Source of the DNA: Escherichia phage vB_Eco_J-01
Sequence record: PQ438393.1
Strand: one strand, 5' to 3'
DNA: 64,000 nucleotides
Shown here: one piece after another, positions 57,890-58,100 of the stretch
How positions within the stretch are numbered: position 1 is the first letter of the stretch
Layout of the letters: each line of letters opens with the position of its first letter
Notes under the pieces: model-generated
Told to the model about the DNA's origin: nothing
Seen by the model: the letters and a program-made list of their open reading frames with translations, nothing else
Databases searched by the model: none
Made by a program: the position numbers and the translations under genes

Positions 57890-58100
57890 AAATTGAACTT
57901 TTCATTTTTGATTTTTCTACGGAAAAAGGCAAAAAAACTTTAAATAAACTGGGGAATTTTTAAAAAATTGAACTTTTCATTTTCAAAATCTGGATAGAAA
58001 TACATACAAAAAACTTTAAATAATTTTGACCAAACTTGAACTTTTCATTTTCAAAATTTGTATCCAAAAATCTGTAAAAACTTTAAATAATTTTGTACTT
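57890..58100. repeat. three tandem direct repeats of about 68 bp
   Basis: Each unit holds TTGAACTTTTCATTTT and AAAACTTTAAATAA blocks. Confidence 0.7.

Follow-up and report, generated by a model that had tools for sequence, protein, structure and literature searches.

A conserved three-unit repeat array in a phi92-like Escherichia phage, a candidate core of an essential cis-acting site

Here, we analysed a non-coding repeat array in Escherichia phage vB_Eco_J-01 (sequence record PQ438393.1), working with a stretch of 64,000 nucleotides that we call the window; coordinates are window positions unless another genome is named. The array (57889-58099) consists of three head-to-tail, AT-rich direct units and lies between a cluster of Fur-box-like palindromes and a minus-strand gene encoding a NADAR protein, the context that had been described for it in a preceding reading of the sequence alone. 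The window is 97-98% identical to the phi92-like Escherichia coli myoviruses EmilieFrey, alia, inny, BME3 and phi92, which belong to the genus Justusliebigvirus of the subfamily Stephanstirmvirinae. A literature search found no paper that discusses the array, and the GenBank records of alia and inny mark it merely as an uncommented "repeat_region". Our favoured, if tentative, interpretation takes the three units to be the core of a cis-acting site that is essential, most likely a replication origin. More broadly, the array is most likely either an origin core or another essential DNA site, and not a set of junk repeats.

The array is real and far from anything expected by chance. A repeat finder recovered its three copies as a single family (D1) at 57889-57951, 57964-58026 and 58032-58094, with start-to-start distances of 75 and 68 bp and with the outer copies 65% and 75% identical to the middle one; Tandem Repeats Finder missed the first copy and returned the better-matching pair alone (57964-58095; period 68, 83% matches, score 187). 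Thus, the three tandem direct repeats of ~68 bp downstream of the NADAR gene that the sequence-only reading had described are borne out, as are the two boxes that it assigned to each unit. Indeed, both boxes are exact in all three units: box A, TTGAACTTTTCATTTT, at 57893, 57968 and 58036, with three mismatches in every other match in the window, and box B, AAAACTTTAAATAA, at 57934, 58010 and 58077, with two mismatches in all remaining matches. The two conserved boxes are separated by 43-45 bp. When the units are set in register with those of other genera, each resolves into two AACTTTAAAT-like sites 46 bp apart, so that the array holds six direct sites in total. Its GC content is 21.3%, compared with 37.1% for the window.

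For a genome-wide search for the boxes, the complete genome of BME3 (146 kb) was reassembled from five pieces. Both box B (with at most one mismatch) and box A (with at most two) are confined to the array in this genome, and the core AACTTTAAAT clusters only there, with one stray 10-mer at 39 kb. In an alignment of 7 Justusliebigvirus genomes, the array contains 8 variable positions in 211 bp (3.8%), of which four fall in unit 2 (57973, 57995, 58004 and 58008) and three in unit 3 (58063, 58097 and 58098), whereas unit 1 has a single variable site in 75 bp (1.3%). The corresponding values are 5.8% for the NADAR coding sequence, 8.2% for an open reading frame (ORF) of 88 codons to the left, 10.2% for the Fur-like cluster and 14.0% for the 150 bp right of the array (58100-58249); two promoter-transcript regions of the module described below, P1/RNA1 (57498-57634) and P2/RNA2 (57668-57751), vary at 2.9% and 3.4% of sites. 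Judged by this alignment, the array is under stronger purifying selection than the adjoining coding genes. In box A of unit 2, the window reads TTGAAC with a private C, where the 6 relatives compared have TTGAAG. Free variation in copy number, with no phenotype, had been named at the outset as an outcome that would count against a role in replication or protein binding. Every record listed as collinear carries three units, with no copy gained or lost, and the homologous region of phage Bas54 shows a phenotype, as described below.

The same array occupies the same syntenic place in Citrobacter phage Tr1, in Phapecoctavirus tuntematon and L007, its relative from IMG/VR, in the V5-like phages LL12 and MaxBurger, and in Pectobacterium phage phiTE and its relatives. 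Box A of Tr1 and tuntematon itself reads AACTTTAgAT or AACTTTAAAT, and the sequence of box B shifts between lineages from CTTTAAATAA to GATCGAGTAC or GATCGAGACC, the forms of other lineages being GC-richer and containing GATC. A run of 4-7 A's directly or 1-2 bp upstream of box B is retained in most units, the exceptions being units 1 and 2 of phiTE and L014, where it is degenerate. The distances between successive copies of box B are 76 and 67 bp in the window and Tr1, 71-72 and 67 bp in tuntematon and L007, 77 and 65 bp in LL12, and 63-64 and 78 bp in phiTE and L014, and the distance from the first to the third copy remains within 138-143 bp across lineages. A fixed geometry combined with a lineage-specific recognition sequence points to a protein-binding array that co-evolves with its ligand, unlike a neutral repeat. 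Three units whose number and spacing are kept across two phage subfamilies form the pattern that would be expected of a repeated protein-binding site. A small protein encoded within the array was considered and rejected, given that stops occur in all frames of both strands and that conservation follows the boxes rather than codons. A search of viral contigs with the two-box pattern AACTTTAAAT-N30-60-AACTTTAAAT proved too unspecific in AT-rich DNA.

The same comparisons bear on the alternative put forward in the sequence-only reading, namely, that the units are multiple weak promoters; we considered both weak sigma-70 promoters and promoters for a phage-modified RNA polymerase. In favour of promoters, one RNA polymerase footprint is about as long as the ~70 bp spacing of the units, TTGAAC is similar to a -35 hexamer and TAAATAAT to a -10 hexamer, and one 9/12 match is present at 57995-58024. 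In the sigma-70 scan, however, just unit 2 scores, and weakly, and the two boxes of a unit are too far apart for a -35/-10 pair (16-18 bp). Moreover, TTGAAC is not conserved in Tr1 or tuntematon, box B of the V5-like phages contains no -10-like sequence, no conserved gene or RNA follows the array, and the motif is not reused elsewhere in the BME3 genome, including upstream of other genes. Tandem promoters are therefore highly improbable, and this part of the earlier interpretation is not supported.

Experimental evidence comes from the V5-like phage Bas54 (MaxBurger), which was included in the HIDEN-SEQ transposon-saturation study (bioRxiv 10.1101/2025.11.20.689424, Extended Data Table 8). The non-coding module of Bas54 is annotated as four mini-ORFs, onto which we mapped the array: its homologue (81475-81731 of the MaxBurger record; 2646-2902 of L149) lies under bas54_0100 and bas54_0101. 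No insertion was recovered at any of the 11 TA sites of bas54_0101, which covers unit 1 and 60 bp upstream and is classified as essential; bas54_0100, covering units 2-3, was hit at 1 of 3 sites (~5 reads) and is not classified; and bas54_0102, which spans P1, RNA1, a Fur box, P2 and RNA2, was hit at 5 of 15 sites and shows a strong fitness defect. By contrast, the flanking genes (bas54_0092-0099 and 0104-0109) were hit at 73-100% of their sites (at least 88% in 11 of the 14), with read counts mostly of 150-800, and are non-essential, bas54_0095 being scored as having reduced fitness. A polar effect is unlikely, given that the stretch from the early promoters to the one essential early gene (0110) tolerates insertions. 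Thus, bas54_0101, an "essential gene of unknown function", is probably not a gene but the non-coding repeat array. The authors of that study comment only on an insertion-free region of 2.5 kb between 0134 and 0135, which contains the homologue of the terminal repeat.

The array also stands out physically. In nearest-neighbour free energies calculated over the whole BME3 genome for segments of 200-400 bp, the segment formed by the array and its right flank (BME3 12.06-12.46 kb) ranks second in instability, after one located 0.8-1.2 kb from the terminus. The latter, least stable DNA of the genome (46900-47300 in the window, beside the terminus) carries several direct repeats of the GGTTAGAT or GGTGAGATA type, ~46-100 bp apart and between Fur-like boxes, and could be a second cis-acting site, for example, a further origin or a packaging signal.

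An alignment of six lineages (A1; Table 1) shows that the array makes up the right-hand part of a non-coding module of ~1.3 kb that is itself conserved. The order of its elements, from left to right, is the 88-aa ORF, P1, RNA1, TTTGTAAAGAAATGTAAAG, P2, RNA2, 3-5 Fur-like boxes, the array, a variable AT-rich stretch, a plus-strand hairpin and 2-3 copies of AAATATCA. When the phiTE module was used as a blastn query, parts of it were found in at least 357 phage records.

Table 1. The array, its module and neighbouring features in the window
Feature	Position	Strand	Remarks
Terminal-repeat equivalent (342-bp direct repeat annotated in BME3)	46024..46365	.	Physical genome end
Leftward sigma-70-like promoters	57117-57089, 56940-56912, 56857-56830	-	10/12 matches; would drive the early-gene block
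88-aa ORF	57229..57495	+	PHROG 19316; accompanies the module in Stephanstirmvirinae and phiTE-like phages
P1, strong sigma-70-like promoter (TTGACA-17-TATACT)	57498-57526	+	11/12 match; directed at the array; conserved in A1
RNA1, conserved GC-rich transcript region after P1	to 57634	+	
TTTGTAAAGAAATGTAAAG	57635..57653	+	GTAAA-N5-GTAAA form; just upstream of P2
P2, putative promoter (TTGCTT-16-TATTCT)	57668-57695	+	Hexamers conserved over six lineages; 8/12 match, unscored by the scan
RNA2, short conserved element, GC hairpin and U-rich tail	~57702-57755, within 57696-57755	+	Downstream of P2; hairpin conserved in A1
Cluster of five Fur-box-like palindromes (AATGAGAATGATTATCATT type)	57752..57869	.	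Immediately left of the array
Repeat unit 1	57889..57963	+	Box A 57890-57908 in register (exact core 57893-57908); box B 57934-57947
Unit 1 dyad TTTTTCtacgGAAAAA (T-run/A-run)	Between box A and box B	+	
Repeat unit 2	57964..58031	+	Box A core 57968-57983; box B 58010-58023
Repeat unit 3	58032..58099	+	Box A core 58036-58051; box B 58077-58090
AT-rich flank right of the array	58100..58249	.	GC 24.7%; poorly conserved; candidate DNA-unwinding region
Hairpin GTGGATTTC-N7-GAAACCCAC followed by ACCCCTTTTT	58250..58290	+	Terminator-like, predicted from the sequence and A1; closes the module
Two AAATATCA motifs	58304..58321	+	Right module edge; overlap the last NADAR codons
NADAR gene	58309-58860	-	Pfam NADAR, E = 3e-36

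No homologue of the 88-aa ORF is annotated in the module of V5-like phages. A distant relative of this ORF in L010 (4132-4761) adjoins ~35 tandem 18-bp repeats of the GGCGATGCTCGGGTGTCC type, which are apparently coding and unrelated to the array. RNA1 has no match in Rfam, and its consensus fold is weak. Within its RNA1, at the equivalent of ~57609-57618, phage cardinal has an insert of 726 bp, a cassette that codes for an endonuclease-like protein and brings its own P1-like promoter and a variant 3' half of RNA1 (L151, 700-1470); a similar insertion is present in L012 (3420-3960). The presence of an endonuclease-like cassette inside RNA1 suggests that RNA1 is a homing target and functionally important. 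The element TTTGTAAAGAAATGTAAAG, of which the BME3 genome has a single copy, is nearly invariant in the six lineages and varies at just the two bases that separate the GTAAAG repeats; with its form, which matches the CpxR-box consensus, it is a putative CpxR site. RNA2 is present in all lineages, including the V5-like one, and a similar element occurs twice in LL12 and MaxBurger. The hairpin that closes the module was missed by a simple terminator scan, and equivalents are found at the same place in Tr1 and tuntematon. At the right edge of the module, two or three copies of AAATATC(A) occur in Tr1, tuntematon, L007, L012, L014, phiTE and LL12, with 2-3 exact copies of AAATATCA in 4 of these 7 loci and one exact copy plus a variant in the other 3. 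The same motif is found beside the terminal repeat in BME3 and LL12; besides 58304-58321, the copies noted lie at window 46142 and at L144 214, 229 and 13345. Beyond the NADAR gene, the minus strand encodes a 467-aa protein (58861-60264) with four CapR-homology repeats and a T5orf172 domain (PHROG "endonuclease"), the gene of which is 1404 bp long here, compared with 990 bp in BME3 and 1173 bp in inny.

How might such a site work? We infer protein binding, the kind of protein involved and the link to replication from the patterns described above. If the array is an origin core, a lineage-specific protein, probably encoded by the phage, would bind to its six direct AACTTTAAAT-type sites (two in each unit), and the resulting nucleoprotein complex would extend over ~210 bp of very AT-rich, easily melted DNA. 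The host-type promoters P1 and P2, 250-400 bp upstream, would fire towards the array and activate or prime initiation, as at the primary origin of T7 and at oriF and oriG of T4, and a T7 gp4-like primase-helicase would then load at the array. Consistent with an origin, multiple short sites in the same orientation are gathered at one locus, adjoined by AT-rich DNA of low stability (GC 21-25%), and, as in a T7-type arrangement, predicted promoters are directed into the AT-rich segment and a primase-helicase of the gp4 type is encoded (in BME3, with Toprim and DnaB_C domains).

Several observations weigh against an origin. Searches of the array's neighbours with Pfam and PHROG found no initiator domain, although the responsible gene could be distant; these neighbours encode the NADAR protein, the CapR/T5orf172 endonuclease, a generic AAA ATPase and proteins of unknown function. 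No conserved consensus sites for DnaA or integration host factor (IHF) are present in the module of the six lineages. The spacings of the sites, 46 and then 21-30 bp, are wider and less regular than the 19-22 bp of classical iterons, and read-through is uncertain because the transcripts from P1 and P2 apparently terminate at hairpins short of the array. Cumulative GC skew shows no switch at the array and tracks gene orientation, and the AA/TT periodicity, which peaks near 11 bp in three lineages, does not exceed that of shuffled controls. The Bas54 insertion values apply to annotated "genes" in a phage of a different subfamily, and an essential RNA or an essential role in DNA entry would yield the same insertion pattern. 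Furthermore, the similar Fur-like repeat region of T5 is not an origin of that phage according to the cited literature. The one essential early gene of V5-like phages likewise received no initiator or DNA-binding assignment from Pfam or PHROG. The proposal that the array consists of origin iterons or repeated protein-binding sites is partly supported: genome uniqueness, selection, conserved geometry, low duplex stability and the insertion intolerance of Bas54 speak for it, and the initiator gene, DnaA box and IHF site that would accompany iterons were not found in the neighbouring genes or the module.

The insertion data would equally fit an essential non-coding RNA. Under this alternative, transcription from P2 or from a promoter overlapping the Fur-like boxes to the hairpin at 58250-58290 would yield an RNA with three A/U-rich motifs, acting as a sponge for an RNA-binding protein or as a repeat-type mimic of an antitoxin, like the pseudo-ToxI of phiTE, which provides a precedent for a non-coding tandem-repeat RNA in a phage (PMC3475682). 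A promoter upstream and a terminator-like hairpin downstream are in place, and the predicted folding of units 2 and 3 is weaker than that of shuffled sequences (z = +1.4 to +1.7), which may suit a single-stranded platform. However, no conserved structure was detected, with folding z-scores of -2.0 to +1.7 for the whole array and each unit on both strands showing no significant structure, and Rfam returned no relevant match at gathering or permissive thresholds. The units, 68-75 bp long and 65-75% alike with short conserved boxes, differ from the near-identical repeats of type III antitoxins, and repeats of ~34-45 nt that form pseudoknots are not present here; nor is there a toxin gene in the context. 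RNA2 seems to end before the array, and the form that box B takes in other lineages, GC-richer and with GATC, is more suggestive of a DNA site. An RNA is therefore an improbable explanation. The phiTE pseudo-ToxI itself was considered as a counterpart of the array and rejected, being at a different locus (106.7 kb, compared with ~39 kb for the module in phiTE).

Alternatively, the array could be an operator or insulator, bound by a transcription regulator or a nucleoid protein that silences or insulates the module, for example, by preventing transcripts of the NADAR operon, the P1/P2 units and the early block from reading through into one another, or by turning off early promoters when the early phase gives way to the middle one. 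The array indeed lies between convergent transcription units in a region rich in promoters, Fur-like boxes and the GTAAA-N5-GTAAA box, the NADAR gene is followed by no intrinsic minus-strand terminator, and the 88-aa ORF, the N-terminus of which is widely conserved, could encode a DNA-binding protein. Yet the array overlaps no predicted promoter and lies at least 190 bp from P2 and ~800 bp from the leftward early promoters, V5-like phages without this ORF keep both the array and the insertion intolerance, and Bas54 tolerates insertions in the neighbouring genes on both sides, which would also disturb read-through. We consider a regulatory role of this kind rather unlikely.

A further alternative emerges from the position of the array and from the Fur-like boxes next to it. 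For BME3, a 342-bp direct terminal repeat has been reported from PhageTerm (PMC12210895), and since this repeat maps to 46024-46365, the array lies 11.9 kb from the physical left end of the genome (~8% of ~146 kb), the gap being filled with small minus-strand ORFs; the module lies at the inner edge of the early-gene block. In LL12, where a 459-bp terminal repeat is located at 104,966-105,424 (PMC6658697), the module lies 11.4-12.5 kb to the right of that repeat in the same gene layout, and in MaxBurger the distance from terminal repeat to array is 12.2 kb. The BME3 record (PP239276) is longer than the genome: it wraps, so that 146169-146956 repeat 1-788 and 146957-147371 repeat 146096-510, and its annotated "DTR-L" contains N bases. 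The record ends of phiWec187 were considered as termini and set aside as uninformative, the cut being arbitrary with an overlap of 148 bp. The window contains 16 Fur-box-like matches, compared with 0.25 expected, all within two clusters, and the whole BME3 genome likewise has just two, one at or next to the terminal repeat and one beside the array, which bracket the early-gene block. The terminus-side boxes lie inside (46149 and 46344) and beside (47237 and 47295) the terminal repeat, and LL12 shows the same pattern, with two boxes in its direct terminal repeat (DTR) and two in the module. In T5, Fur-like boxes are found at positions 231, 6098 and 9552-9691 within the LTR (left terminal repeat), and the cluster beside the array is similar to T5 9604-9709 (blastn, 76% identity, E = 1e-8), a stretch that consists of the DRE repeats at which the shear point of first-step transfer has been placed. 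The T5 preprint consulted does not mention Fur.

The array could be a boundary element of the early segment that enters the cell first, corresponding to the injection-stop region of T5. In such a scheme, host Fur and a second factor would occupy the Fur-like boxes and the array and so create a block ~12 kb from the leading end, which would pause or gate DNA entry, or delimit the early domain, until early proteins are made. In addition to the similarity to DRE, the Fur-like boxes of T5 are likewise followed by a lineage-specific direct-repeat array, DRD, with 9 copies of TGTGCAAATCCGAC; the relative position is nearly the same, ~8% from the left end here (12-12.2 kb in LL12 and MaxBurger) and 7.9% in T5; the interval holds small, mostly dispensable early ORFs transcribed towards the end, like T5 dmp, A1 and A2; Fur-like boxes lie in or near the terminus of BME3, LL12 and T5; pairs of TTGAGATAA/G are found after the array in tuntematon, L007 and L012 as well as where the T5 region ends; and an essential entry signal would explain the transposon result too. 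These pairs are 20-23 bp apart (3357 and 3380 in L004; 3864 and 3887 in L007; 4322, 4345 and 4410 in L012; 10120 and 10140 at the right end of the T5 stop region), and the 9-mer has 3 scattered occurrences in the 146-kb BME3 genome and is degenerate in the window (58139-58150). Conversely, when the early block was compared with the terminal repeat of T5 by tblastx, no homologues of A1/A2 or other pre-early proteins were found, the terminal repeats are 342-459 bp long as opposed to ~10 kb in T5, and the paired DnaA boxes of T5 were absent from the module in a scan of the six lineages. Two-step transfer has never been reported in these myoviruses, and in T5 itself no defined sequence has been assigned to the stop signal and no role to the DRD repeats. 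Overall, a boundary element is unlikely, though the least so among the alternatives to an origin. The broader notion that T5-like, V5-like and phi92-like phages share a host-factor-dependent checkpoint, possibly involving Fur, ~12 kb (8%) from the leading end is more doubtful still. If true, a takeover segment that enters first and is largely dispensable would be set apart from the remaining genome by this checkpoint, and it would be at the lineage-specific array that a phage factor lifts the block or makes use of it.

Apart from the terminal repeat, no origin or essential cis-acting site has been defined for phi92-like or V5-like phages, which serve widely as chassis for engineering and as components of therapy cocktails. 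The present analysis locates a compact candidate of ~210 bp, in a module that has its Fur-like boxes in common with the still unexplained injection-stop region of T5. It thus offers a mutable target and a candidate host factor, Fur, for two questions, namely, where replication starts in these phages and what the T5 stop signal is. Genome engineering should leave the locus intact.

Among known systems, the pseudo-ToxI of phiTE (PMC3475682) is likewise a non-coding tandem repeat of a related, V5-like phage, but its 36-nt near-identical repeats expand under selection and fold into pseudoknots, whereas the array has a fixed copy number and no predicted structure. Repeat Region 3 of T5, its injection-stop region, resembles the module in that Fur-like palindromes are followed by lineage-specific direct repeats ~8% from the left end, where they bound a block of small early genes, and a further Fur-like box lies near the terminus. 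The T5 region, however, is located inside the 10-kb terminal repeat and is accompanied by paired DnaA boxes (IRD'/IRC') and by A1/A2, and its DRD units are 14-bp sites at irregular spacing, compared with three units of ~70 bp here.

For the origin that we tentatively favour, two kinds of precedent are available. In T7, the early region ends in the primary origin, which consists of two tandem promoters (phi1.1A/1.1B) and an AT-rich segment. Similarly, the module has two tandem promoters directed into a meltable, AT-rich non-coding stretch at the inner end of a left-terminal early region, and the phages encode a gp4-like primase-helicase. Unlike in T7, the promoters are of the host sigma-70 type and apparently produce short terminated RNAs, and the AT-rich part is made of three conserved units with paired boxes; moreover, T7 can do without its primary origin, whereas hardly any insertions are tolerated in the region of Bas54 homologous to the array. 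Iteron-type origins, such as lambda ori, P1 oriR and P4 ori/crr, also combine several short sites of the same orientation with an adjacent AT-rich region, and the site is lineage-specific while the architecture is conserved. They differ from the array in their usual regular spacing of ~22 bp, as opposed to 46 and 21-30 bp, and no recognisable adjacent initiator gene, and no DnaA or IHF sites in the module, were found here; the P4 alpha protein, which binds the origin, belongs to helicase superfamily 3 (SF3), whereas the helicase here is of the T7-like SF4. In P4 crr, short sites are embedded in direct repeats of ~120 bp, much as two boxes are embedded in each unit of the array. Taken together, the array is a variant form of a known type of cis-acting repeat array, with a predicted function; it is tied by sequence to the T5 stop region, apparently essential in a relative and conserved over two subfamilies.

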